Source: a virus
Taxonomy: Duplodnaviria > Heunggongvirae > Uroviricota > Caudoviricetes
DNA length: 47,890 nucleotides
IMG/VR virus record: IMGVR_UViG_2671180896_000002
Strand: one strand, 5' to 3'
In this document: positions 1 through 46,359 of the stretch, piece by piece
How the letters are laid out: each line of letters opens with the position of its first letter
Numbering within the stretch: position 1 is the first letter of the stretch
Notes under the pieces: model-generated
Databases searched by the model: none
Told to the model about the DNA's origin: nothing
What the model saw: only the letters and a program-made list of their open reading frames with translations
Position numbers and translations under genes: made by a program

Positions 1-1667
1 TTGCCAGGGATATCCGCACCGTTCTTATCTTTCTGCAGACGTTTCTCAGCATTGTCATTGGCTGCTTTTACTGCCTTTGGTGTTGCTGCCAGCGTTTCAG
101 ACGTGCTGTTGGTCGCGCTGCTTAGCTGGACTATCCCTTTCTGTGCTGTCGTTGCATCCTGTGCGGTGTATTTCCCGTCAGCCAGGTCATACGCGGCCTT
201 AACGGCTTTTGGCGTTGCCGCCAGTGACTCGGAAGTGCTGTTGGTCGCACTGCTGAGCTGTACTATCCCCTTTTTCGTCGTGCTCGCATCCTCAAGCGCC
301 ACGGCGGATGCAATATCCTCTGCCCGTTTTGCCGCTGTCTCAGCGCGCGTTGCCGCGGATTCCGCCGTACTTTTGCTCTGTGCTGCCGCCGTCGCACTGC
401 CAGCTGCCTCTGTCGCCTTCGTGGATGCTGTCGTGGCGCTGCCCTTCGCTGCGGACGCTTGTCTGGTCGCCTCATCTTTTGAAGCAGACGCCGATGATGC
501 CGATGACGCCGCCGAACTGGCGGACGATGCGGCAGCCGTTTTTGAGGATTCTGCGCTGGTTTCCGACGCTTTCGCGTTCGTCTCGGATGTCTTCGCTGCG
601 GAAGCAGACCTCGCTGCTGCGCTGGCCTGTTCAGTGGCTTCGCCAGCCTTCGTTGTGGCTGTTGAAGCAGACGATGCGGCACTTTCTGCCGATTTTCCGG
701 CGGCGGTGGCACTGGCTGAGGCCTGCCCGGCACTTGTTGACGCGGCACTGGCAGACGACGCAGCCGCTGTTTTTGAGCCTGCCGCAGCCGAGGCGCTCTG
801 TCCCGCTGCCGTTTCAGAAGACCTGGCGTTTGTCTCAGACGTCTTTGCCGCCTTCGCGGAATTGCCTGCCGCCGTTGCCGAGGAAGCGGCACTACTGGCG
901 CTTGATGATGCGTTCGTTTCTGATGATTTCGCTGCCTCTTTTGAGGCCGCCGCATCCCGGGCTGAGGTGGCTGCTTCTGACGCCTTCGTGGTCGCGGCGG
1001 ATGCAGAAGTGGCTGCTGATTGTTGTGACGCTGCCGCATTCGTTTCTGACGTTTTCGCCGCAGCGGCACTGGTAGCTGCCGCGCTTTTTGAGGACTCTGC
1101 AGCAGCAGCACTTTTCGATGCTTCACTGGCCTTTGTTGATGCCGTTCCTGCGCTGGAAGATGCTGACTGAGCCGACGACGCGGCCTGTCCGGCTGACGTG
1201 CTGGCTGCGCGTGCTGAGCCTGCAGCATCAGTCGCATGGGTTGCCGCCTCACGGGCTGATGTGCTGGCATCGCTGGCTGACTTCTTCGCGACTGCCGTGT
1301 TCTGTGCCACCGCGGACGCGTTACGCGCCACCTCTTCCACCATCAGTTCAAAACGGCGCAGTGCCTCAGGACGGGCATCATCCTCCGTCATGGCACCGAG
1401 AAAATCATTCAGCGTACCGGGTTGAGAATCTTCATACACGGTGATGGTCCCGGCATGTGACGGCGGGAATCCTTCCACCAACAGAATAACGCTGTACTGC
1501 CCGTACTCAACGTCCATGCTGTAACGCCCGGCTTCATCCGGATTTTCTGAGGCCAGCGTGTTCACCACCACCGTGGTGCTGTTACGTTTTGCTTTCAGCT
1601 GGATTGTGCAGTTCTGTACCGGTTTTCCTGTGCCGTCTTTCAGTACACCTGAAATCTTTACTGCCAT
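1..1667 (-). CDS. stf: Side tail fiber protein, N-terminal ~555 aa (3' end of gene lies beyond window start)
   Basis: Reverse complement of 1441-1667 translates MAVKISGVLKDGTGKPVQNCTIQLKA..., the lambda Stf N-terminus; ATG at 1665-1667 (minus). Followed by Ala/Ser-rich repetitive sequence. Position downstream of lom as in lambda/Rac. Confidence 0.85.
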   Translation of the reverse strand, partial: MAVKISGVLKDGTGKPVQNCTIQLKAKRNSTTVVVNTLASENPDEAGRYSMDVEYGQYSVILLVEGFPPSHAGTITVYEDSQPGTLNDFLGAMTEDDARPEALRRFELMVEEVARNASAVAQNTAVAKKSASDASTSAREAATHATDAAGSARAASTSAGQAASSAQSASSSAGTASTKASEASKSAAAAESSKSAAATSAAAAKTSETNAAASQQSAATSASAATTKASEAATSARDAAASKEAAKSSETNASSSASSAASSATAAGNSAKAAKTSETNARSSETAAGQSASAAAGSKTAAASSASAASTSAGQASASATAAGKSAESAASSASTATTKAGEATEQASAAARSASAAKTSETNAKASETSAESSKTAAASSASSAASSASSASASKDEATRQASAAKGSATTASTKATEAAGSATAAAQSKSTAESAATRAETAAKRAEDIASAVALEDASTTKKGIVQLSSATNSTSESLAATPKAVKAAYDLADGKYTAQDATTAQKGIVQLSSATNSTSETLAATPKAVKAANDNAEKRLQKDKNGADIPG

Positions 1668-1678
1668 ATTCACCCCAC

Positions 1679-1705
1679 AAAAAAGCCCGCCTGAACCGGC
1701 GGGCT
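1679..1705 (-). terminator. Rho-independent terminator-like hairpin between lom and stf
   Basis: Minus strand reads AGCCCGCC-GGTTCA-GGCGGGCT followed by TTTTTTG; 8-bp GC-rich stem plus T-run immediately after the lom stop. Confidence 0.6.
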
Positions 1706-1731
1706 GTCATAACACTGTGTTACCTGGCTAA

Positions 1732-2331
1732 TCAGAATTTATAACCAACACCCACGATGAACCCGTCAGTGCGCCAGTCACCACTGCCGGAGCCTTCATA
1801 AGCGACATCAATGGCCACGGATTCGGTCGGGTTAAACTGCACGCCAGCTCCCCACGCCAGAGACGTGTTGCTGTGGCGACCGTCATCACTTCCGGTCAGC
1901 ACATCGTGCGTTTTCCCCTTATTGTCAGTTACGCGGAGATAATCCCCGGAGAAAGTCGACACACGGCTGTAAGCCACACCCGCCATCGCATACGCGCTGA
2001 ACCATTCATTCACGCGTACAGACGGCCCCGCCATCACGCTGAACCAGCGGTTACGCACGGAATCTTCATACCAGCGGGTATCGCTGTAACGGGTCAGCTG
2101 GCGATTCTTGTCTCCTGCATAGCTGAACGACGTCACCATCCCCAGTGTGTCCGTAAACTCATAACGGTATTTCACGTTAATCCCGTTAAGATCATCGCTG
2201 CCGGGAACGTTCGTCGAGGCATGAAGATACCCCGCGCTCAGCGTGGACTGATGTTCAGATGCCCATGCAGGCGCACCGGATACGGCCAGACAAATGGCTG
2301 CGGAAAAAATGGCGGCATAAAGTTTACGCAT
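1732..2331 (-). CDS. lom: Lom/Ail-family outer membrane protein (lysogenic-conversion moron)
   Basis: 199-aa ORF MRKLYAAIFSAAICLAVSGAPAWA... with signal peptide and aromatic C-terminus (GVGYKF) typical of 8-strand OMP beta-barrels; lambda lom position between J and stf. Confidence 0.9.
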   Translation of the reverse strand: MRKLYAAIFSAAICLAVSGAPAWASEHQSTLSAGYLHASTNVPGSDDLNGINVKYRYEFTDTLGMVTSFSYAGDKNRQLTRYSDTRWYEDSVRNRWFSVMAGPSVRVNEWFSAYAMAGVAYSRVSTFSGDYLRVTDNKGKTHDVLTGSDDGRHSNTSLAWGAGVQFNPTESVAIDVAYEGSGSGDWRTDGFIVGVGYKF

Positions 2332-2354
2332 AATTACCTCTCGCTTTTCTGCAA

Positions 2355-2380
2355 TAAAAAAGGCACCATTTCTGGTGCCC
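2355..2380 (-). terminator. Rho-independent terminator after J
   Basis: Minus strand: GGCACCAGAAATGGTGCC stem-loop followed by TTTTTTATT, directly downstream of the J stop. Confidence 0.6.
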
Positions 2381-2400
2381 TTATATGGGTTATAACAATT

Positions 2401-5400
2401 TCAACGAATACTGATGCCGGAAGCGGCTTTTTTGGTCACAATCACCGTACAGTCGGTGATATTGCCTGCCCCCTGATTGCCTTTCTGGAAAATCTTAAAC
2501 TCCAGAGTGACGCTACCACCACCACTAGGCATATCAATAACTGCACTGTAACTACCGGGAATGGCCCCTTTAGTTTCTCTGGATGCGATTAATACGCCGT
2601 TTTTGCGAACTTCAAAACCATAACCCGTGTATCGCGTGCCTCCTGGGTTATTTCCGCTCCCCGGATCGTCATACGCTATACCGTTAAAAATAATGGGCGG
2701 AATAATAATCTGGCGGTCAAAGTTATGATCATCGCTGATGGTGACTGTAACCGTACCGTTTGGTGTTTCCGTGTTACCCCACGTACCGACTTTTTTCGGG
2801 AAGGCTTTTGATACAGCTTTAACGAAATCCCCTCTGACCTGGGTCGCCTCCAGCATGCCCTTAATCGTACAGTTCTGGTTAATCGTGACATTGTTGAGCG
2901 TTCCTGAGTTCGCATTCACACTACCACTGATATCCGCATTTTTAGCGGTCAGCTTTCCGTCTGATGTCAGGGAAAATACCGGAGGACTGCCACCGCTGGT
3001 AATGGTGGGGGCTGTCAGGCGCTTCAGGAACACGTCGTTCATGAATATCTGGTTGCCCTGCGCCACAAACATCGGCGTTTCATTCCCGTTTGCCGGGTCA
3101 ATAAACGCGATACGGTTAGCGGCAACCAGAAACTGGCTCAGCTTGCCTTCCTCCGTGTCCTCCATGCTGAGGCCAATACCCGCGACATAATGTTTGCCGT
3201 CTTTGGTCTGCTCAATTTTGACGCCCCACATGGCATTCCATTTATCGTTAGCGTCCTTCCACTCTTTCGAAAACTCATCCAGTCTGCTGGCGTTATCCTC
3301 CGTCAGATCAACTTTTTCCAGCAGCTCTTTACCGAGATGGGATTCGGTTATCTTGCCTTTGAAAAAATCCAGGTAACCTTCCGCATCATCGCTCGCCCGA
3401 CCGACAGCCTCCACGAATGCCGATTTGCCAACGGTGTTCACACTGCGAACGTAAAAATAATAATCATGGCCCGGTTTGATATTGATACTGGCGGCTATCC
3501 AGTACAGCGCCGTACCAAGATAGCGGGCTGTGGTTTCAACCTGCCTGATATCGGTAATCCGCTTTTCCGAGAACCAGAACTCAAACTGTACCGTCGGGTC
3601 ATAAACAGCAAGATGCGGCGTGGCGGTTATCTGAAAATAGCCCGGCGTCAGCTCAATCCTCGACGGTGCTGCCGGTGCGGCAATCCGGAACGATACCGAC
3701 GCCGGATCACCCTGCTGCCCCCGGGCATTTACCGCCCGGACTGTCAGCCTGTAGTTCCCCAGCGCCAGTTGCGTGAAGCGGTATGTGGTTTCCGTCGTCC
3801 GGGCCGTGCTGACCAGCCGCTCACTGCCGTCGTCCGCTGTTACGGTCAGACGGAGCAGGAAGCTCACGCCCTTCACCACCTTCGGTGTGTCCCATCGAGC
3901 CAGCACCTGGTATTCCCCACTGTCTGCGGTGACTTCTGCGGTCAGGTGCTGCACCGCTGGCGGCGTGACACCATTCACCGTGCCGCTCTGGTCGCCGTCA
4001 AAGTGCGCCCCGTTATCCACGATGGCTTCTTTTTCCGGTACATGCTGCACGGCAGTGATGGCATACGTGCCGTCATCGTTCTCACGGATACTCACACAGC
4101 GGAACAGGCGCTGACGCAACGTCGGCAACTTCAGCCCCCACACACTGTATTCTGCAACGCCGTCAGGAACCCGGTTCACTTTCACCTTAAGTCCGTCGGT
4201 GACGGACTGAACCTCCACGCTGACCGGATTACCACTTCCGTCAACCAGGCTTATCAGCGTGGTACCGGAGGATGGCAGCGTGATTTCACGGTCGAGCGTC
4301 AGCGTCCGGGTCTGGCTGTTCACCGCCAGCACGCGACCACCGGTGCTGATACCGGCATAGTCATCATCGCAGATTTCAATGACATCGCCCGGTACATGGC
4401 GAAGCCCTTCAGCACCCACGCTGAAATCCACGGTCTGCGTTTCCAGCAGTTCCGTTTTAATCAGCCACAGCCCGGCTCGGTGTGCCTGCCCCCGACTGGT
4501 ACAACCAAAGGCATCCATCTTCGTGACATTACGACCGTAACGGGCAATGGCCTGCGTATCTTCAACAAGCTCTGTCGCCGTCTCCCAGCCGTTGTTCGGG
4601 TCAATCCAGTTCACCTCAACGGCATTATGGCGGTCCTTCAGGGCGCTGAAGCTGTAGCGGAACGGCGCGCCATCATCCGGCATCACCACATTACTGCGGT
4701 TATAGGTCCACACCTTATCCGACGGTCGGTCCTGCACGAACGTCAGCGTCTGCCCGTTCCATACCGGCATACAGCGCATCGCCGAGCAGAAATCACTGAG
4801 CACATCCCACGCCTTACGCTGTGTGGTCAGGTACGCATTACAGGTGATGCGCGGCTCCGTGCCGCCAAAGCCGTCCGGCACTGACTGGTCGCAGTACTGG
4901 CCGATGACATACAGCGCCCATTTGTCCACATCCGCCGCACCAAGACGTTTCCCCATGCCGTAGCGTGGATGGCTCAGCATATCCCACAGACACCAGGCCA
5001 TGTTATTGCTGTATGCTGGCTTAAACGTTCCGTCCCAGATACCGCTGTATTGCCGCGTCTGCGGGTTATAGTTCGACGGCACCTGCAGAATACGCCCGCG
5101 CAGATGATAATTACGGCTCACCTGCTGGCTGCCGAACTGCTCCGAATCCACCTGCACGCCGACCAGTGCCGTGTTCGGGTAGCACTGTTTCACATCGATG
5201 ATTTCGGTGTATGACGACCAGAGCGTTTTGTTCTGCAGCTGGTCTGTGGTGCTGTCCGGCGTCATCCTGCGCATCCGGATATTGAACGGGCGCGGCGGCA
5301 GGTTACCCACCACCACCGATGCCAGATACTGTGAGGTGGTTTTGCCTTTAATGGTGATGTCTTTTTCCGTCACCCAGCCACCGTTACGCTGTATCTGAAC

Positions 5401-27225: not shown

Positions 27226-27621
27226 CTAACCTCGCATGTCAAAGCCAGATTTCTGAAAATCTCTGTAGACTTCCGGATTGTTGAAGGCCGGAAATTTGGC
27301 TTTATGAGCTGCGGACTTTATCGCTTCGCAATAGGCTTTATCACCGTTACTGGTAGATATTTTTAACGCCGTGCCATCCTGAGAGAATTCCATATGCAAC
27401 CTGCATTTTTTCCCTTTCCAGTTATGCGGCTCATCAAGTTTGGCATTAATTGCAGCTCTGATTCCCCGCGCTTGCGCCCCCCATTCATCCTGATCATCCC
27501 AGCGTCCTGAACTGCAACTACCTGTAGCAGTAGTTTTGTGGCAATCTGAAGGGTGTAAAGGTGTGCATCCCGCAACAAAACCGACCCAAAAAGTCAACAT
27601 AACGATTTTCTTTAATCCCAC
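27226..27621 (-). CDS. Lipoprotein with TolA C-terminal (domain III)-like region, paralog 1
   Basis: 131-aa ORF; signal peptide plus lipobox (FVAGC); C-terminal KGKKCRLHMEFSQDGTALKISTSNGDKAYCEAIKSAAHKAKFPAFNNPEVYRDFQ follows the same pattern as paralog 2 and TolA domain III. Confidence 0.6.
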   Translation of the reverse strand: MGLKKIVMLTFWVGFVAGCTPLHPSDCHKTTATGSCSSGRWDDQDEWGAQARGIRAAINAKLDEPHNWKGKKCRLHMEFSQDGTALKISTSNGDKAYCEAIKSAAHKAKFPAFNNPEVYRDFQKSGFDMRG

Positions 27622-27771: not shown

Positions 27772-28200
27772 TCAGGGTTTAAAATCCAGCACCCCATTTT
27801 GAAATACTTTATATACTTCCGGCGAAGGGGGGGCAGGTATATCAGCATTCTTTATCGCATTCATCGCTTCACGACATAAATCGAGGTCTCCACTTTCTCT
27901 TTTAACCTCCAGTAGAAGGCCATTCGGGGCCATATGCATTCTCAGTGTACACTCTTTTCCTGAATACTTACTCGCATCCCCGAACTGTTTTTCGATGGCG
28001 CTCTTGATTTGATGGGCATACAGACGGATATCCTCACTAACATCAGAAGTACGTTCAGATGAACTCACATACTGTGTCTCTATTGCTTTATCGGAGTAAT
28101 ATGATGTACGGTCATGATAATTTGTCGATACAGCATCAGTGCACCCGATAATAATCCCACTAATAATCAACGTAAGAATTGATGCGCTACGAAAACCCAT
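27772..28200 (-). CDS. Lipoprotein with TolA C-terminal (domain III)-like region, paralog 2
   Basis: 142-aa ORF; lipobox (IIGC); C-terminal YAHQIKSAIEKQFGDASKYSGKECTLRMHMAPNGLLLEVKRESGDLDLCREAMNAIKNADIPAPPSPEVYKVFQNGVLDFKP closely resembles the C-terminus of E. coli TolA as I recall it (...YAGQIKSAIESKFYDASSYAGKTCTLRIKLAPDGMLLDIKPEGGDPALCQAALAAAKLAKIPKPPSQAVYEVFKNAPLDFKP). Confidence 0.7.
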   Translation of the reverse strand: MGFRSASILTLIISGIIIGCTDAVSTNYHDRTSYYSDKAIETQYVSSSERTSDVSEDIRLYAHQIKSAIEKQFGDASKYSGKECTLRMHMAPNGLLLEVKRESGDLDLCREAMNAIKNADIPAPPSPEVYKVFQNGVLDFKP

Positions 28201-29138
28201 TTTTCCTCACATATGTCATATAGTAAAGGATTATATATACCGTTGTTTTGGACGCTCAAACAGCGAATCAGATCAAATAAAACGCACATTTGTTAACATT
28301 TACACAAAGTCTGCGTGGGATATTCTGAAAGAATATCCATAATGTGGAGAGAATCTATTGAAGTGCATGGTGCCGGGTGCCTCCCGGTGAACAAAATGTT
28401 CGTGATACCTGTCGGCGACAGAAAAGGTTAATGGTATCACCCCACCGCACAGGGGGATTCACCATGCAGGAGTTTTCTTAGCAAACTCACTGCGCGCCCG
28501 GCAACTCCCAACCACATAAAATGCGGAGTTTGTGGTATTTATGCATATAACTCGCAGGAATTATCTTAAAAAACTGATGTCGATCCGGATTAAAAAGAAG
28601 CAGGTCATCATCAGATGACTGGAAAAAAGGAAAACAAAAAATACTCATCATACAGTTTTGATTGCAGGGATGAGCCTGCTATGCACAATATGCAGAATAT
28701 AAGCAAGATAAAAATATGCAGGCATATTATTTCGGGTTTTGTTATTAACACAACCTTTTTAATAATCATTTGGCATACAATAAACCAGCCCAAAAAGAAC
28801 CGCCTAAACAGGCGGTTGGTCAATACAAAGGATGCTTCGTCTTTATTATAGTAATCTGAGGCGTCGGGTGTCTTGTATCAGACAACATATTGTCCCGCTA
28901 AACAGCGAATTACAAACCACCCTGCAATGATCTCTCATCTCATTTTATATGAGTTGACGACATCAGGATAACGCATCATCAGCCCCTGCCAAGAAATATC
29001 AAAACTCCCGCCAGCAATGTGTTATCACAATATTGTAAAAAAAACACAGCACCGAAACTATAACTGGTCTCTGTTATAATTTGGAGCAGAAAGACCAGTT
29101 GCCCAACTAGCAGCATTCTCCCCTGCTTTCCTGACGTA

Positions 29139-29244: not shown

Positions 29245-29787
29245 TCAAGCCATTTTCTCAGCAAATGATTCACGCATGGGAATATATAGGGCATACTCAG
29301 CAACAGCTAACCAATTAGCAATCCGTTTTTCGCATGTGCTAAAACACCACTCTGGGTGTGCATCATTTAGCAATTCAGCCATTTTGCGCTTAGTCATCCC
29401 CCGCCCTTCATAGCGTTGCCGGAGAATGCAAATCAATCCTGGATGCTCTGCCAGCACCTCACTTATGACTCGATCAATACATAACGCCTCTGCATCAGTA
29501 CAATGCGCCAGCCAGCTCTTTTGCTTGCCGTTGATCATCTCTCGCAAAAACGCTTCCAGCTCAGCTTTCTCTATTCCCGCTTTTTTCATTCTGCGCAGGG
29601 CTTCATTAATGGCTGTTTTCGTCAGTTTTTTGGATGCCAACAACTGATTGAACATATTCCCTGACCTGCCACCGCCAATATACGACCAGCGCCCCCACAT
29701 ACGTAGTTTTCCCTGAATCCAGACACTTTCCAGCGTGGTGAGGCGAAGGTGTTCTCCGCTTTTTCCTGTATTCGTTGGGTAAATCAT
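29245..29787 (-). CDS. Putative late-gene antiterminator (Q-like) by position; family not identified
   Basis: 180-aa ORF with Cys pairs (HCTDAEALC, EWCFSTCEK); last gene of the nin-like block, followed by terminator hairpin, morons and the lysis cassette, the position lambda Q occupies. Not lambda-Q-like in sequence. Confidence 0.4.
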   Translation of the reverse strand: MIYPTNTGKSGEHLRLTTLESVWIQGKLRMWGRWSYIGGGRSGNMFNQLLASKKLTKTAINEALRRMKKAGIEKAELEAFLREMINGKQKSWLAHCTDAEALCIDRVISEVLAEHPGLICILRQRYEGRGMTKRKMAELLNDAHPEWCFSTCEKRIANWLAVAEYALYIPMRESFAEKMA

Positions 29788-31033: not shown

Positions 31034-31124
31034 AAATATTTACAGATGAAGTAAACCCGCCAATCAGGTTAACTGTGGCTGCGTTGAGGATGCATAATAC
31101 ATCAGAGGTTGCGGGGATTTCTCC

Positions 31125-31147
31125 CATAAGCGCTAACTTAAGGGTTG
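31125..31147. repeat. IS186 left terminal inverted repeat
   Basis: CATAAGCGCTAACTTAAGGGTTG; exact reverse complement of 32441-32463. Confidence 0.9.
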
Positions 31148-31173
31148 TGGTATTACGCCTGATATGATTTAAC

Positions 31174-32292
31174 GTGCCGATGAATTACTCTCACGATAAC
31201 TGGTCAGCAATTCTGGCCCATATTGGTAAGCCCGAAGAACTGGATACTTCGGCACGTAATGCCGGGGCTCTAACCCGCCGCCGCGAAATTCGTGATGCTG
31301 CAACTCTGCTACGTCTGGGGCTGGCTTACGGCCCCGGGGGGATGTCATTACGTGAAGTCACTGCATGGGCTCAGCTCCATGACGTTGCAACATTATCTGA
31401 CGTGGCTCTCCTGAAGCGGCTGCGGAATGCCGCCGACTGGTTTGGCATACTTGCCGCACAAACACTTGCTGTACGCGCCGCAGTTACGGGTTGTACAAGC
31501 GGAAAGAGATTGCGTCTTGTCGATGGAACAGCAATCAGTGCGCCCGGGGGCGGCAGCGCTGAATGGCGACTACATATGGGATATGATCCTCATACCTGTC
31601 AGTTCACTGATTTTGAGCTAACCGACAGCAGAGACGCTGAACGGCTGGACCGATTTGCGCAAACGGCAGACGAGATACGCATTGCTGACCGGGGATTCGG
31701 TTCGCGTCCCGAATGTATCCGCTCACTTGCTTTTGGAGAAGCTGATTATATCGTCCGGGTTCACTGGCGAGGATTGCGCTGGTTAACTGTAGAAGGAATG
31801 CGCTTTGACATGATGGGTTTTCTGCGCGGGCTGGATTGCGGTAAGAACGGTGAAACCACTGTAATGATAGGCAATTCAGGTAATAAAAAAGCCGGAGCGC
31901 CCTTTCCGGCACGTCTCATTGCCGTATCACTTCCTCCCGAAAAAGCATTAATCAGTAAAACCCGACTGCTCAGCGAGAATCGTCGAAAAGGACGAGTAGT
32001 TCAGGCGGAAACGCTGGAAGCAGCGGGCCATGTGCTATTGCTAACATCATTACCGGAAGATGAATATTCAGCAGAGCAAGTGGCTGATTGTTACCGTCTG
32101 CGATGGCAAATTGAACTGGCTTTTAAGCGGCTCAAAAGTTTGCTGCACCTGGATGCTTTGCGTGCAAAGGAACCTGAACTCGCGAAAGCGTGGATATTTG
32201 CTAATCTACTCGCCGCATTTTTAATTGACGACATAATCCAGCCATCGCTGGATTTCCCCCCCAGAAGTGCCGGATCCGAAAAGAAGAACTAA
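31174..32292 (+). CDS. insL: IS186 transposase (IS4 family, DDE)
   Basis: 372-aa ORF (M)PMNYSHDNWSAILAHIGKPEELDTSARNAGALTRRREIRDAATLLRLGLAYGPGG..., recognisable as IS186/IS421 transposase; sits inside the inverted repeats. Confidence 0.9.
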   Translation: MPMNYSHDNWSAILAHIGKPEELDTSARNAGALTRRREIRDAATLLRLGLAYGPGGMSLREVTAWAQLHDVATLSDVALLKRLRNAADWFGILAAQTLAVRAAVTGCTSGKRLRLVDGTAISAPGGGSAEWRLHMGYDPHTCQFTDFELTDSRDAERLDRFAQTADEIRIADRGFGSRPECIRSLAFGEADYIVRVHWRGLRWLTVEGMRFDMMGFLRGLDCGKNGETTVMIGNSGNKKAGAPFPARLIAVSLPPEKALISKTRLLSENRRKGRVVQAETLEAAGHVLLLTSLPEDEYSAEQVADCYRLRWQIELAFKRLKSLLHLDALRAKEPELAKAWIFANLLAAFLIDDIIQPSLDFPPRSAGSEKKN

Positions 32293-32440
32293 CTCGTTGT
32301 GGAGAATAACAAAAATGGTCATCTGGAGCTTACAGGTGGCCATTCGTGGGACAGTATCCCTGACAGCCTACAAAACGCAATTGAAGAACGCGAGGCATCG
32401 TCTTAACGAGGCACCGAGGCGTCGCATTCTTCAGATGGTT

Positions 32441-32463
32441 CAACCCTTAAGTTAGCGCTTATG
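32441..32463. repeat. IS186 right terminal inverted repeat
   Basis: CAACCCTTAAGTTAGCGCTTATG; exact reverse complement of 31125-31147. Confidence 0.9.
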
Positions 32464-32485
32464 GGATTTCTCCCCGCCGGTCCTC

Positions 32486-32641
32486 TTACTCCCCAAGTTC
32501 GTAAGCTGTGAAGACAGCGACCTCCGTCTGGTCGGTTCGGATTCGTACCTCGCAGAGGTCTTTCCTCGTTACCAGTACCGTCACTATAACGGTTAAACAG
32601 ATGACGATCAGGGCGACTAACATCGCCTTTTGCTGCTTCAT
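32486..32641 (-). CDS. hok: Hok/Gef-family type I toxin (small membrane toxin)
   Basis: MKQQKAMLVALIVICLTVIVTVLVTRKDLCEVRIRTDQTEVAVFTAYELGE (51 aa), near-identical in pattern to HokD/RelF and HokC; the supplied ORF extends in frame upstream to 32698. Confidence 0.85.
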   Translation of the reverse strand: MKQQKAMLVALIVICLTVIVTVLVTRKDLCEVRIRTDQTEVAVFTAYELGE

Positions 32642-32970
32642 AGCCTGCTTCTCCTTGCCTTTCGGCACGTAAGAGGCTAACCTACATGTGCAAAGCATGA
32701 AATTGGCCTCAGATTAATGTTAAGCGTCTTGCCGGATGCGTAATGTTAACTGGGGCTTTTCTCTATCTGCCTTTGATGTTCATGCCCGAGGCAGATAGCC
32801 TCAAGTATCCGCAGCTATTTGTCTGCTGTTACCACCTACCTGCGCCAATCACTGACTCTACAAAGATCTATCCGCGATAACATTTTGAGTTTAAGAACTT
32901 TTGCGTACGCACCAAAAGATGCATATACTAGACTAGTCATAGTTCTAATCTGCTTGATTATGGAGTCAGG

Positions 32971-34029
32971 ATGAGTTTCCTTTCTGAACAAGACGTACAA
33001 AATTTAGTCATTAATAAAATGATCTTTCACGTTGTAGGTAAGAATCTTGAAGCACCGACACTTCTCAAAGAAATAAAACCAGTTCAGCATGTGGATTTTT
33101 TTCTTGAACGTATCAAATCTTCACTGAAAGGAAATCTTTTCACTTTTCTGGAGAATTCAAATACCGAAAGAATCCTGCGTATCATTAGAGATAAAGCAGA
33201 TGCTGAAGCTAATTGTTTTACAGAACAATCGAAGCTACTGGCCAGTGATTTTCAGTCACACCATTCTAGCGGTAACACGAGTATGGGATGCTTTTTCTTA
33301 TTTGAATTGGTTTCAGATAAGGAAAAATTATATGCAATTATAAAATACGATAATGAAGATGTGGTTCGTTATGTTCTTGACGAAAAGTTATCTGAAGAAC
33401 AAATGCCTACTTTAGAAAGATTTCATGAAACTTTCGTAAAAAAAGCTGAGGCAATGCAAAAAATAGCGTTAATTCAACTTGATCCAAGTGGGAAAGGCGG
33501 GAAAGTTATTGTAAAAGACAGGAGTAAAAGAACCAATATTTCAGGATATTTTAAAGGCTTCTTAAATGTTAAAAGAGTCAACTCTGAAATTGAACTTTGC
33601 AATAAGCTTATTGATGCGCTGAAAATAACCTTCAAAAGGCATAAAGAATTATTACCAGAGTCAATTCAAAAAAGCGGCGTAAATAAAATATATGAAGTTT
33701 TAAGCAGAGCTGATTTCGAATATAATCCTGAAGATGCTTCTCCGTTATTGACCAGCATTTTTGGGCCGTTAGATGAAAAATCACCAATTCTCAACACATT
33801 CAAAACTCAAACAAAAAATGCTGGTATTGAAGGCGAATCCTTTACTGTAAAAGCAGATGGCATTCATAAACCACCAAGACGAAAAATTGAAACTGCAGAA
33901 AGTGTAGTAATTAGTTATAATGAAGATGACCGTCCAGAAATAAGAAACTTAGATGATGGGCGAAAACAAATTATTGTTACTACTGCGAGGATTATTACTG
34001 ATGACATCGATACTTCAAAAAATCGATGA
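32971..34029 (+). CDS. NdpA/YejK (NA37)-like nucleoid-associated-protein-family protein, 352 aa
   Basis: ATG with GGAG SD; motifs NKMIFHVVGKN, MGCFFLFELVSDKEKLYAIIKYD and ISGYFKGFLNVKRV parallel YejK motifs (ALHQLIK, GGFVLFCHYRYLAVEYLL, YLTFLKGRVGRKV) as recalled; AT-rich gene on the strand opposite to flanking phage genes. Confidence 0.55.
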   Translation: MSFLSEQDVQNLVINKMIFHVVGKNLEAPTLLKEIKPVQHVDFFLERIKSSLKGNLFTFLENSNTERILRIIRDKADAEANCFTEQSKLLASDFQSHHSSGNTSMGCFFLFELVSDKEKLYAIIKYDNEDVVRYVLDEKLSEEQMPTLERFHETFVKKAEAMQKIALIQLDPSGKGGKVIVKDRSKRTNISGYFKGFLNVKRVNSEIELCNKLIDALKITFKRHKELLPESIQKSGVNKIYEVLSRADFEYNPEDASPLLTSIFGPLDEKSPILNTFKTQTKNAGIEGESFTVKADGIHKPPRRKIETAESVVISYNEDDRPEIRNLDDGRKQIIVTTARIITDDIDTSKNR

Positions 34030-35434
34030 GTCTATACAGGCGTCAAGGAAAGACCCTGAATTTTTGGCATCAGAATCAATAAAAAATGATTCTGCGCGCG
34101 TTCTAATTTCTGCCAAAATGGACAAAGATGCACTCATTCTTTGGCAGTACGTTTACGAAAACGTACCAAATTGGATTGAAATTACTGTTAAAGATGACTG
34201 TAATGACGAAGTAAAACCATCGTCATGCAGTGAAGGTGATAAACTTAACATTACGCTAAAATGCATTGCATTCGAAAATAACAGGTATATTTTTACGCTC
34301 GAAGGGTGGAATGTTTTTCTACACAATGATGATTTAGTATCAATAACCAATAAAGTGAATATTCTCGGTTTGAAACATGGATTTGAAACTTTAGGATATT
34401 CTGTTGAGCCATGGAACCATGCTCCAGAAAAAATTGAACCTAATGAAACCGTACGAACTTCAATCAATTTACAGAGCTACGTTAAATTCTATTCTAGTGA
34501 GTTCATGCCTGCATCTGATATAGCTCCTTGGGTACTTTATAAAATGCCTGAGGCAGAGGACAACTTTTTCAAAAAATGGTTACAAGTTTCCTGCAATATG
34601 CTTTGTCGCACTCTCGTTAATGAATTATTAGCAGATGAAAAGAAATCAATTTGTTTAACTGGAAAGCCACCAAAAAAATTAATTTATGGAGATCCAGACA
34701 TTCTGCTTTCCGACTATTCAGTTTTACAAACTGTAATAAACTGGATCTTTATTGAGGGCAATGAGATTGAACTCAAACATACTTTCTTCACAAGTGAGTT
34801 AGCACGAGAATGGCCAGAGTATGTATCCTTCTGTGAGGGTTTACCAAAAAAACTCCCTATGGCCTTTGAGTCAGCAAAATTACTATATAAGGCCCACATT
34901 CGCGCTAGCAGCAGAGAGACTATTAAATCTCTGTCCGATCTAAGGAAAACCTTAGCTGAAGACACGCAAAAAATAATAAGTCAGTCTAAAGACATCACAT
35001 CCGCTCTTTGGAAAGATCTGGCTCTGGTTATAAGTCTATTTGCAATAAAATATGCGCTAGACGCATCAAAGATTAATATAACCAATAACATATTCCCATA
35101 TATGTTCTTCGCGTTATCTATATATATTTTTATATCTCAGGTTACAACTCTCTTCATAAATAAAAATTACTTTAAGATACTTGATAATACTAGGCTAGTC
35201 TGGAGAGATAAACTATATGGTTTTCTTGATGATACTGACTATGAGAATCTTGCAGTCACACCATTAAGAGAGGCATACAAAGCTTATCAGATTATAGCCA
35301 CATTCGTTGTGATTCTGACTTTGCTGATTTCATTTATAATGATCATATTAGGATTCTCAATGCTTGATGAACATGCTACGAATGCAATTACCTCTTGGCT
35401 CAGTTCTCACTTAATCAATAGTTACTGTAGTTAA
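34001..35434 (+). CDS. Membrane protein, ~477 aa: N-terminal soluble domain plus three or more C-terminal transmembrane helices
   Basis: Start ATG 34001 (MTSILQKIDESIQ...) overlaps the upstream gene by 29 nt (supplied ORF begins at 33953); C-terminal hydrophobic segments LALVISLFAIKYAL, IFPYMFFALSIYIFISQVTTLFI, IIATFVVILTLLISFIMIILGFSML. Confidence 0.6.
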   Translation: MTSILQKIDESIQASRKDPEFLASESIKNDSARVLISAKMDKDALILWQYVYENVPNWIEITVKDDCNDEVKPSSCSEGDKLNITLKCIAFENNRYIFTLEGWNVFLHNDDLVSITNKVNILGLKHGFETLGYSVEPWNHAPEKIEPNETVRTSINLQSYVKFYSSEFMPASDIAPWVLYKMPEAEDNFFKKWLQVSCNMLCRTLVNELLADEKKSICLTGKPPKKLIYGDPDILLSDYSVLQTVINWIFIEGNEIELKHTFFTSELAREWPEYVSFCEGLPKKLPMAFESAKLLYKAHIRASSRETIKSLSDLRKTLAEDTQKIISQSKDITSALWKDLALVISLFAIKYALDASKINITNNIFPYMFFALSIYIFISQVTTLFINKNYFKILDNTRLVWRDKLYGFLDDTDYENLAVTPLREAYKAYQIIATFVVILTLLISFIMIILGFSMLDEHATNAITSWLSSHLINSYCS

Positions 35435-35464
35435 TTTAAGGCGAGAGAAACTCGCCTTAAAAAA

Positions 35465-35995
35465 TCAACGGTAATAGATACAACCTGCAATAAATCCCAT
35501 TGCCATTTGCATTTTTTTCCTTATTTTACCATCTGAACATTCGTTTATCTTAGCTAAACAACGCAATGAAACTCTCATAACAAAATGAGCGATAATTAAC
35601 TCATAGTCATCTATCCTATATTGTTTAAGCCTCAACATGCAGGTATCAATTATACCCCCTTCATCATTGCTGCACTGACGACGTGATTTTTTACCATGAG
35701 GAACAACATTTTTATATTTATCAGCTATTTCCTGCCAATCAATAGAACTATTTTCAGCTACAGCCCAGGCTCCCCAACCGTCCAAAATATCATATATATT
35801 AGCATTGCTATCTACCTGTTTTTTATATTCTTTTTTGAAGCGCGCAAGAAGCATCCTAGCCATCGTTATTATTTCTATACTTGTAACTGATTCATAAGCA
35901 TCAGGAGAAATAATTCTCCCATCACTTAATGCCCCATCACTAAGATTTGCTATTTCCAATAATCGTTCTTTAGTTATTTCCATTATTATCTCCAC
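35465..35995 (-). CDS. Q-like antitermination protein (QuuD / Phage_antitermQ-like family)
   Basis: Contains DGWGAWAVAEN...KKSRRQCSNDEGGIIDTCMLRLKQ...CLAKINECSDGKIRKKMQMAMGFIAGC matching the WGAWA and Cys-pair pattern of DLP12 QuuD as recalled; start may be an internal Met (MARML..., 35863); AT-rich. Confidence 0.5.
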   Translation of the reverse strand: MEIIMEITKERLLEIANLSDGALSDGRIISPDAYESVTSIEIITMARMLLARFKKEYKKQVDSNANIYDILDGWGAWAVAENSSIDWQEIADKYKNVVPHGKKSRRQCSNDEGGIIDTCMLRLKQYRIDDYELIIAHFVMRVSLRCLAKINECSDGKIRKKMQMAMGFIAGCIYYR

Positions 35996-36143
35996 CGCCT
36001 TTTCGGGCGGCCTCCTGATGATTTGAGAGTGCAGAAATTCCTCCGGTTAAGGACTCTATTTTATTCACAGTGCTGAATTTAATTATTCAGATTTGGATTA
36101 TGCTTTCTCTTTCACTTCACCAAGTTCCGATTATTAATTTGGC

Positions 36144-45962: not shown

Positions 45963-46157
45963 ATGAGATATGACAATGTTAAACCATGTCCATTTTGTGG
46001 TTGTCCATCAGTAACGGTGAAAGCCATTTCAGGATATTACCGAGCGAAGTGTAACGGATGCGAATCCCGAACCGGTTATGGTGGAAGTGAAAAAGAAGCA
46101 CTCGAAAGATGGAATAAACGAACCACTGGAAATAATAATGGAGGTGTTCATGTATAA
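45963..46157 (+). CDS. ralR: Restriction alleviation protein Lar/RalR (type I TA toxin, Zn-finger DNase)
   Basis: 64 aa MRYDNVKPCPFCGCPSVTVKAISGYYRAKCNGCESRTGYGGSEKEALERWNKRTTGNNNGGVHV with CxxC...CxxC. Confidence 0.85.
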   Translation: MRYDNVKPCPFCGCPSVTVKAISGYYRAKCNGCESRTGYGGSEKEALERWNKRTTGNNNGGVHV

Positions 46158-46359
46158 AATTACCGCCACTATTGAAAAGGAAGGTGGCACTCCTACTAAC
46201 TGGACAAGATATTCAAAATCTAAACTAACGAAATCAGAATGCGAAAAAATGCTCTCAGGTAAAAAAGAAGCAGGCGTTTCCAGAGAGCAGAAAGTAAAAC
46301 TGATAAATTTTAATTGCGAGAAACTTCAGTCCTCGAGAATTGCATTGTATTCAAATTAA
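46150..46359 (+). CDS. ydaC: YdaC-like small protein
   Basis: 69 aa MYKITATIEKEGGTPTNWTRYSKSKLTKSECEKMLSGKKEAGVSREQKVKLINFNCEKLQSSRIALYSN; ATG overlaps ralR end. Confidence 0.75.
   Translation: MYKITATIEKEGGTPTNWTRYSKSKLTKSECEKMLSGKKEAGVSREQKVKLINFNCEKLQSSRIALYSN

Follow-up and report, generated by a model that had tools for sequence, protein, structure and literature searches.

Q antiterminators are textbook switches of phage late genes. What, then, might a Q gene do that stands apart from them? This question is raised by a stretch of 47,890 nucleotides (IMG/VR record IMGVR_UViG_2671180896_000002; as a whole referred to as the window), a Rac-type lambdoid prophage at ttcA. Its minus strand carries a Q-type gene (35465-35983) that follows the replication genes and is not immediately upstream of a late promoter, terminator or lysis genes. 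An earlier reading of the sequence alone had described this gene as one stranded at the edge of an accessory island. Comparison with related loci points instead to a module in which the Q gene, an opposite-strand gene cassette and a 13-bp site occur together. We put at roughly 0.55 the probability that the Q protein binds this 13-bp site and regulates the divergent promoter region there, and we are less confident about either specific output of such binding.

Identity and integrity of the Q gene

The gene encodes 172 amino acids (aa) plus stop on the minus strand at 35465-35983. The mechanically called open reading frame (ORF) extends to a GTG at 35995. The ATG at 35983 is the likely start because GGAG is found 7 nt upstream, the sequence MEITKERLL opens all homologues, and at a 100% identical locus the RefSeq annotation is a 172-aa 'antiterminator Q family protein'. 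Pfam family PF06530 (Phage_antitermQ) matched residues 66-173 of the 176-aa ORF with E=1e-32 (113 bits; cutoff 26), and PHROG 79 ('anti-termination protein Q-like') matched with E=2e-32. We had initially assumed PF06530 to be the Q82 family; this was ruled out by the literature, which assigns it to the Q21 family and not to the Q82 family (PMC9388147). Neither the Q82 (PF06323) nor the Q-lambda (PF03589) family matched the protein at E<=0.1. Among the relatives that the sequence-only reading had named for alignment, Q21 and QuuD were thus borne out and Q82 was not. The identity is 38% to QuuD of Escherichia coli K-12 (E=1e-24) and 58% to the sole Q of an Stx1a phage.

The WGAWA motif given in that reading is present at residues 70-74. 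The cysteine pairs reported along with it are not: the five cysteines include no CxxC pair, the family-conserved ones being C104 and C149. The WGAW tryptophans, GKK, D107, G109 and ID are core residues, invariant in the long and short forms of the family alike.

When used as a single sequence, the protein found no match in the PDB. A subfamily profile (22 homologues) detected the Q21 chains 6P18 and 6JNX (E=2e-5). AlphaFold2 supplied with a 59-sequence alignment from a search of cluster representatives returned a model with a predicted local distance difference test (pLDDT) score of 86.7; the 22 close sequences had given a score of 48, which was unusable. In the PDB, Foldseek ranks 1-12 were all Q21, followed by region 4 of extracytoplasmic function (ECF) sigma factors. 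Residues 62-172 (35468-35800, minus strand) are thus predicted to form a Q21-like core and a sigma-region-4-like helix-turn-helix.

The first 61 residues (35801-35983, minus strand) are a lineage-specific N-terminal extension, modelled as two short helices and an N-terminally lengthened helix H1. Related proteins fall into two size classes. Members of the long class, from E. coli and Salmonella, have ~170-185 aa, strongly conserve their first 60-65 residues and are 64-99% identical to the query. Those of the short class (~114-145 aa in a large protein database) are without the long N-terminus; over the Q domain, their identity is 51-60%. None of the examined relatives of 113-127 aa has the extension. 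Among 5426 complete E. coli genomes, 68 contain the long form, one copy each. It was found in none of 50,697 deposited phage genomes, where every match starts at residue 62. In a search of 1.84 billion cluster representatives, the N-terminal part was covered only by the long-Q cluster and truncated long-Q fragments, and a search with the N-terminal 65 residues recovered frameshifted long-Q fragments only. Comparison ruled out that the extension is a fusion with the ORF preceding Q in the Stx1a phage.

For comparison of loci we assembled 48 long-Q loci, 9 from E. coli genomes (the window included) and 39 from a viral-contig collection. The gene is intact in the window, so the truncated pseudogene that the sequence-only reading had allowed for was not encountered; 42 of the 48 loci have it intact. 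Frameshifts or premature stops occur in the other six (L048, L049-L053), and PHROG 3323 and several 'hypothetical protein' entries are fragments of this kind. The ratio of nonsynonymous to synonymous substitution rates (dN/dS) was 0.32 for the extension, indicating purifying selection on the extension itself, 0.29 for the core and 0.26 for the C-terminal part. Judged by these sequence data, the ORF encodes a bona fide, intact and selectively maintained Q21-family antiterminator of the QuuD type, its antitermination activity being predicted from the family.

The Q-cassette-site module

Enough downstream DNA for analysis was available at 46 of the long-Q loci. At all 46, the Q gene is followed by a convergent cassette of two or three genes and then, on the Q strand, by a single perfect copy of the 13-mer TGCGTACGCAAAA. 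In the window the 13-mer occupies 32899-32911 (minus strand), where its single copy compares with 0.06 expected by chance. It contains the palindrome GCGTACGC and is a candidate Q-binding element on grounds of conservation and co-variation. The cassettes are of six unrelated types (represented by 22, 11, 6, 4, 2 and 1 loci), and the sequence on either side of the 13-mer varies with cassette type, making the 13-mer an island of identity. Behind it lies hok in 42 of the 46 loci; in the remaining four the contig ends too soon or hok was not detected. The gap between 13-mer and hok is 245-400 bp in nearly all of the 42, and ~1.7 kb in L030.

The cassette of the window consists of two plus-strand genes. 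Their convergence with the Q gene, described in the sequence-only reading, was confirmed, the facing 3' ends being 30 bp apart. Between these ends is a single hairpin, GGCGAGAGAAACTCGCC (35440-35456), which has no good U-run on either strand and was not called by the terminator scan. The first gene (32971-34029) encodes a 352-aa NA37-like nucleoid-associated protein (PF04245, E=5e-13). The second (34001-35434) encodes a membrane-type protein of 477 aa (493 from the ATG at 33953) with hydrophobic C-terminal helices. PADLOC 2.0 returned no match for either protein, nor for Q. Most cassettes combine a soluble protein of ~300-400 aa with a protein containing several hydrophobic helices, a layout resembling RexA/RexB. 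An NA37-like first gene is found in two cassette types; one type has a DUF6731 protein and a transmembrane protein with a weak RexB match (E=0.0015), and another has a first gene that matches PDC-M53A, a candidate family of PADLOC (E=2e-21). Nothing catalogued matched the remaining cassette proteins. Sister cassettes in the same slot can be inspected at L002, L008, L011, L029 and L033.

The last ~60 residues of Q, comprising the helix-turn-helix, track the cassette type, and the N-terminal two-thirds of the protein recombine independently. The late regulators present alongside long Q belong to the Q-lambda family (PF03589), the Q82 family (PF06323) or DUF1133. Coexistence with three late-regulator families indicates that long Q is linked with the cassette rather than with any lysis module, favoring the suggestion of the sequence-only reading that it regulates something other than lysis. 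We conclude from these comparisons that the Q gene, the opposite-strand accessory cassette, putatively of the exclusion type, and the 13-bp site constitute a portable three-part module. The view of the gene as stranded is not upheld: with 46 of 46 loci and six cassettes following the same plan, the arrangement appears recurrent and selectively maintained.

The same order of elements is found in phages with a short Q. Our comparison set comprised Stx1a_499, mEp460, Stx2a_1447, vB_EcoS-569R4, SfII and a Klebsiella phage (ST846-OXA48phi9.1). In these, Q is followed by a convergent cassette of two or three genes, the site (C)GCGTACGCAAAA, a -10-like TAnnnT, a leader beginning TGTTAAGAGTGGTTACTTCGCCACACAGCTTAAAC, an intrinsic terminator and the late genes (stx, holin). 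By its layout, this order is the anatomy of a Q-dependent late promoter. The short Qs have 103-115 aa (the Klebsiella gene is annotated shorter) and are 47-58% identical to long Q over its residues 62-172; the closest share with it a near-identical recognition helix, CSDGTIRK. Each is the sole annotated Q-type gene in the stretch examined, located beside the late genes. Some of their cassettes are homologous to long-Q types 1 and 5.

Phages with other recognition helices provide a comparison of site and protein. In DLP12 of K-12 and in mEp332, QuuD is followed by the convergent nmpC, the site ACGTACGTAAAA, the same leader and terminator, and then essD. Here the recognition helix differs and the palindrome takes a symmetric variant form, ACGTACGT. 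PhiR5_1 combines a further recognition helix with the palindrome GCGGTCCGC; it is without a cassette, and GCGGTCCGCAAAA occurs 38 bp past Q, with the same leader next. The palindrome thus shifts symmetrically with the helix-turn-helix of Q while the leader remains constant, suggesting that the palindrome is likely the binding element of the Q subgroup of QuuD, mEp460 and the Stx phages. Note that the DLP12 site ACGTACGTAAAA is located at position 4699 of L058 (K-12 MG1655; 1457-5114), between nmpC and essD. The presence of variant palindrome, leader and terminator between these genes places the DLP12 late promoter probably downstream of nmpC, not beside quuD.

Q21 of phage 21 (6P18, 6P19, 6JNX) shares the family and fold of long Q. 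TM-scores reach at most 0.63 (~0.4-0.5 for the chains from RNA polymerase complexes), and identity is ~12% in the structural alignment; Q21 is without the N-terminal extension. It has a sigma-region-4-like DNA-binding domain, and the element that it recognizes falls between -35 and -10 (PMC6606751; bioRxiv 10.1101/651190). The position of the palindrome, just upstream of a -10-like hexamer, roughly matches that of the Q21 element.

Together, these similarities support derivation of the module from the late-control region of lambdoid phages of the QuuD/mEp460/SfII type. They likewise support its insertion by recombination in a Rac-type prophage, where it now lies in the early-right operon, flanked by the replication genes and hok. 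The mosaic history suggested by the sequence-only reading, with an island brought in from the late-control region of another phage, is thereby substantiated by the linkage at all 46 loci and by the same order serving late control in mEp460, SfII, the Stx1a and Stx2a phages, the Klebsiella phage and DLP12. That reading had also proposed looking for a Q-binding element and a pause site downstream of the gene. A candidate binding site is indeed present, 2.5 kb downstream and past the cassette; the leader and terminator are absent.

Predicted divergent promoters at the 13-mer and the possible function of long Q

The 13-mer is flanked by promoter-like elements on both strands. Toward the cassette, a promoter is predicted on the plus strand at 32901-32929, 42 nt upstream of the ATG at 32971, by consensus match: the -35 hexamer TTGCGT lies in the palindrome and is separated by a 17-nt spacer from the -10 hexamer TATACT (32924-32929). 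Of the six long-Q types, five have TTGCGT with a -10-like hexamer 17-18 nt on, as do the short-Q phages that were checked; DLP12 has a weaker version. On the Q strand, a -10-like TAAACT (32888-32893, minus strand) is located 9 nt past the palindrome, at the offset of the conserved TAnnnT in short-Q late promoters, and may be a remnant promoter toward hok. A -10-like hexamer is present at this offset also in type 5.

We propose that, after induction, Q would be expressed from the end of the early-right transcript, as its last gene, and would then bind the palindrome. Since the cassette promoter has its -35 TTGCGT within the palindrome, Q bound there should be in competition with sigma-70, and cassette expression would be lowered during the prophage's own lytic growth. 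With its RNA-polymerase-contacting core conserved and a -10-like element at the right offset, Q may also retain the ability to engage polymerase that initiates in the direction of hok; terminator-resistant transcription would then be relayed as far as the nin-like genes and DUF1133. Across the 200 bp that separate the 13-mer from hok, the scan called no terminator-like site. Two other modes of action were considered. Bypass of the cassette by early transcripts with the help of Q was rejected, since Q-type factors load at promoter-proximal pauses and the only candidate site is beyond the cassette, not upstream of Q. Antitermination of the cassette promoter by Q was judged unlikely, as the site is ~7 bp further from the -10 element than in the late-promoter geometry.

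A more elaborate and distinctly tentative proposal is a two-way switch that combines both outputs. Before induction, transcription from the cassette promoter would run toward the 3' end of the Q gene, meet no strong terminator on the way and damp leaky Q expression in the lysogen. Upon induction, Q would shut off a Rex-like abortive-infection cassette, sparing the prophage from triggering its own defence, and would relay transcription past the cassette to hok, the nin-like genes and the late regulator. The Q gene and its site would then act as portable 'bookends', allowing opposite-strand defence cassettes to be inserted into a phage operon without polar damage. A prophage defence that is switched off on induction through an opposite-strand architecture has been described for the Staphylococcus aureus phage 80alpha (PMC11087260).

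Several observations weigh against regulation of the divergent promoter region by Q. With Q disrupted at 6 of 48 loci, some lysogens can do without the gene. The element bound by Q21 is a direct repeat (PMC6606751), in contrast to the palindrome here, so that the binding geometry is not simply transferable: Q21 uses a helix-turn[loop]-helix on two direct repeats of TGAGCA, whereas long Q has an ordinary short turn and a palindromic candidate site. The promoter assignments are consensus matches, and a scan of the region shows no excess over shuffled sequence. Type 4 does not show the cassette promoter pattern. On the Q strand, the -10-like hexamer is missing from the expected offset in types 1, 2 and 6, and lies 1 nt further in type 4. 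The conserved leader and terminator of the short-Q late promoters are absent from all long-Q loci, and the window contains no match at <=3 mismatches. Finally, the 13-mer could be conserved only as part of the cassette promoter and not as a target of Q.

The loss of leader and terminator, the disrupted copies and the presence of another late regulator in the prophage would all be expected of a decaying relic, carried in by recombination, left without any function and persisting only because the insertion is recent. We consider this explanation unlikely, even if it survives best among the rivals. A dN/dS of ~0.3 in all three segments and a proportion of synonymous differences (pS) of up to 0.5 in the C-terminal part argue that the divergence is not recent. 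Moreover, the family-invariant residues are retained, the extension is under purifying selection and the 13-mer is perfectly identical amid flanks that differ among six cassette types.

The position of TTGCGT inside the motif, with a -10-like hexamer at 17-18 nt in most cassette types, would also fit a 13-mer that serves a strong cassette promoter only as its core, the -35 and the part upstream of it. Breakpoints in lambdoid mosaics often fall at short conserved sequences, and the 13-mer might also be a short recombination linker; in either case long Q would have another target. This, too, appears rather unlikely. Thirteen invariant bases exceed the need of a -35 hexamer, the symmetric shift of the palindrome with the helix-turn-helix in QuuD/mEp332 and PhiR5_1 occurs next to an unchanged leader, and PhiR5_1 keeps the palindrome 38 bp past Q although it is cassette-free.

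A further possibility concerns expression of Q in the lysogen, as part of the accessory function: a factor interfering in trans with superinfecting phages that use the same Q-binding element or, more broadly, with host transcription. The gene is preceded by a conserved intergenic element (35994-36143, minus strand) that comprises the palindromic TCTGAATAATTAAATTCAG, an AGGAGG and, just 5' of the start codon, a GC hairpin of 6 bp with the loop GAAA. This element of ~105-150 nt is found in 2841 of the 5426 complete E. coli genomes, with up to 7 copies per genome, and precedes varied first genes, including long Q, DUF7167 and other small ORFs; it is found also at L005 (~5001-5099), L006 (~5001-5099) and L007 (~5001-5107). 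A relationship of the N-terminal extension to DUF7167 or the other small ORFs behind it was considered, and none was found. As a structured RNA or nut-like site, the element had no Rfam match, and its fold z-score was only -1.67. So widespread an element could hold a promoter for Q; Gifsy-1 AntQ has global, toxic effects on termination when expressed (PMC4825925), and E. coli commonly harbors phages that share the palindrome of the 13-mer (mEp460, SfII, Stx phages). However, the scan predicts no promoter in the element, unscheduled Q would also hit the resident site, and the Q gene is in line with the repressed early-right operon. We therefore regard an interference factor as improbable. Gifsy-1 AntQ was also considered as an equivalent of long Q and rejected, because it is a Q in the canonical position.

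Late control of the prophage and related systems

On the minus strand, the Q gene is preceded by genes for cro-like, YdaT-family, O-like, DnaC-like, DUF1627 and DUF977/Ren-like proteins and by the 150-bp intergenic element. Past the cassette follow hok/sok, an insertion sequence (IS) of the IS421/IS186 type, DUF1367, YbcO and DUF1133, in agreement with the statement of the sequence-only reading that hok, an IS186-type element and nin-like genes separate Q from the late genes. The distance of 6 kb to the lysis genes given there corresponds to that of DUF1133 (5.7 kb from Q); the holin is 8.4 kb away. The hok toxin gene with its sok/leader region covers 32486-32810 on the minus strand (hok 32486-32641; Pfam HOK_GEF; Rfam sok, 99 bits). 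The IS4-family element extends on the plus strand from 31053 to 32463 with approximate boundaries (transposase 31174-32292). The hok-IS block is 98% identical between the window (~31053-32698), L009 (4621-6266) and L010 (4648-6263), where the replication and late modules differ; it is either mobile as a unit or reflects an insertion hotspot for the IS behind hok. Elsewhere in the window, the RalA antitoxin small RNA (46156-46334, minus strand; Rfam, 225 bits) adjoins ralR as in K-12 Rac.

The DUF1133 gene (29245-29787, minus strand; Pfam E=2.5e-107) is the Q-like gene in the canonical position. The existence of a second Q-like gene, claimed in the sequence-only reading, holds insofar as DUF1133 is present; its link to the Q family is marginal, with 26.1 bits to PF06530 and an hhalign probability of 81% against the Q21-subfamily profile. 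Pairwise BLAST of DUF1133 against long Q found nothing, so that the link is seen by profile methods only. Our literature search on DUF1133 found nothing directly relevant. DUF1133 also precedes the late genes in L001, L003, L010 and L011. Downstream of it, a candidate late unit at 28798-28874 (minus strand) consists of the promoter-like AAGACA-18-TATAAT (28874-28845) and, ~30 nt on, a strong intrinsic terminator (28817-28798). This unit is located 370 bp downstream of DUF1133, with another terminator in between. An Rfam STnc100 match (28311-28497, minus strand) lies past the unit. Two genes with TolA C-terminal domains (27226-27621 and 27772-28200, minus strand) precede the holin, as moron-like cargo in the classical Q-S position, and the holin-lysozyme-Rz cassette is found downstream of them.

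DUF1133 is the probable late regulator of the prophage. Long Q does not appear to be its late-gene switch, given the varied late regulators with which it is found, the separate unit after DUF1133 and the lone 13-mer in the window. That long Q is a second, redundant activator at the ~28.85 kb promoter, with or instead of DUF1133, is highly improbable. In favor of it, long Q belongs to a family of bona fide late antiterminators, and DUF1133 is only a remote relative of Q21; against it, the lone palindrome is 4 kb from this promoter, the short-Q leader is absent from the window, long Q is paired with three unrelated late-regulator families and different lysis cassettes, and the IS element and hok separate it from the late region.

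Among known systems, QuuD (YbcQ) of DLP12 is likewise a PF06530 protein followed by a convergent cargo gene, nmpC, with the palindrome and AAAA past the cargo. It differs in having 127 aa without the N-terminal extension, and in DLP12 the leader, terminator and essD-rrrD-rzpD directly follow the palindrome. In the window, by contrast, hok is behind the site and the lysis genes are under a separate regulator. A parallel in regulatory logic is offered by Tha/Ith of 80alpha, where a defence gene expressed in the lysogen is overlapped by an opposite lytic transcription unit that prevents self-targeting (PMC11087260). That system involves other proteins and another host, and its inhibitor is a small antisense-encoded protein combined with transcriptional interference, whereas the effector proposed here is a Q-family protein binding DNA and RNA polymerase.

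The Q family, QuuD and the occurrence of morons between Q and the lysis genes are already known. In the literature, we found no description of the palindrome as a binding element for this Q subgroup, of a hotspot for cassettes, with a shared divergent promoter region, in the interval from Q to the late promoter, or of an N-terminally extended Q uncoupled from late genes. Long Q would be such a case: a Q21-family member uncoupled from late genes, N-terminally extended and co-inherited with interchangeable cassettes and a 13-bp site. If our interpretation is correct, it would supply a testable Q-binding element for the QuuD/mEp460/Stx-phage subgroup, including the Qs of Shiga-toxin phages. The region between Q and the late promoter would be a cargo hotspot that could be mined for exclusion systems, with at least six cassette types, most of them uncatalogued. 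The module would also represent a route by which a prophage may silence its own defence cargo on going lytic. Even if the functional inference fails, the locus provides a clear case of lambdoid module transfer.

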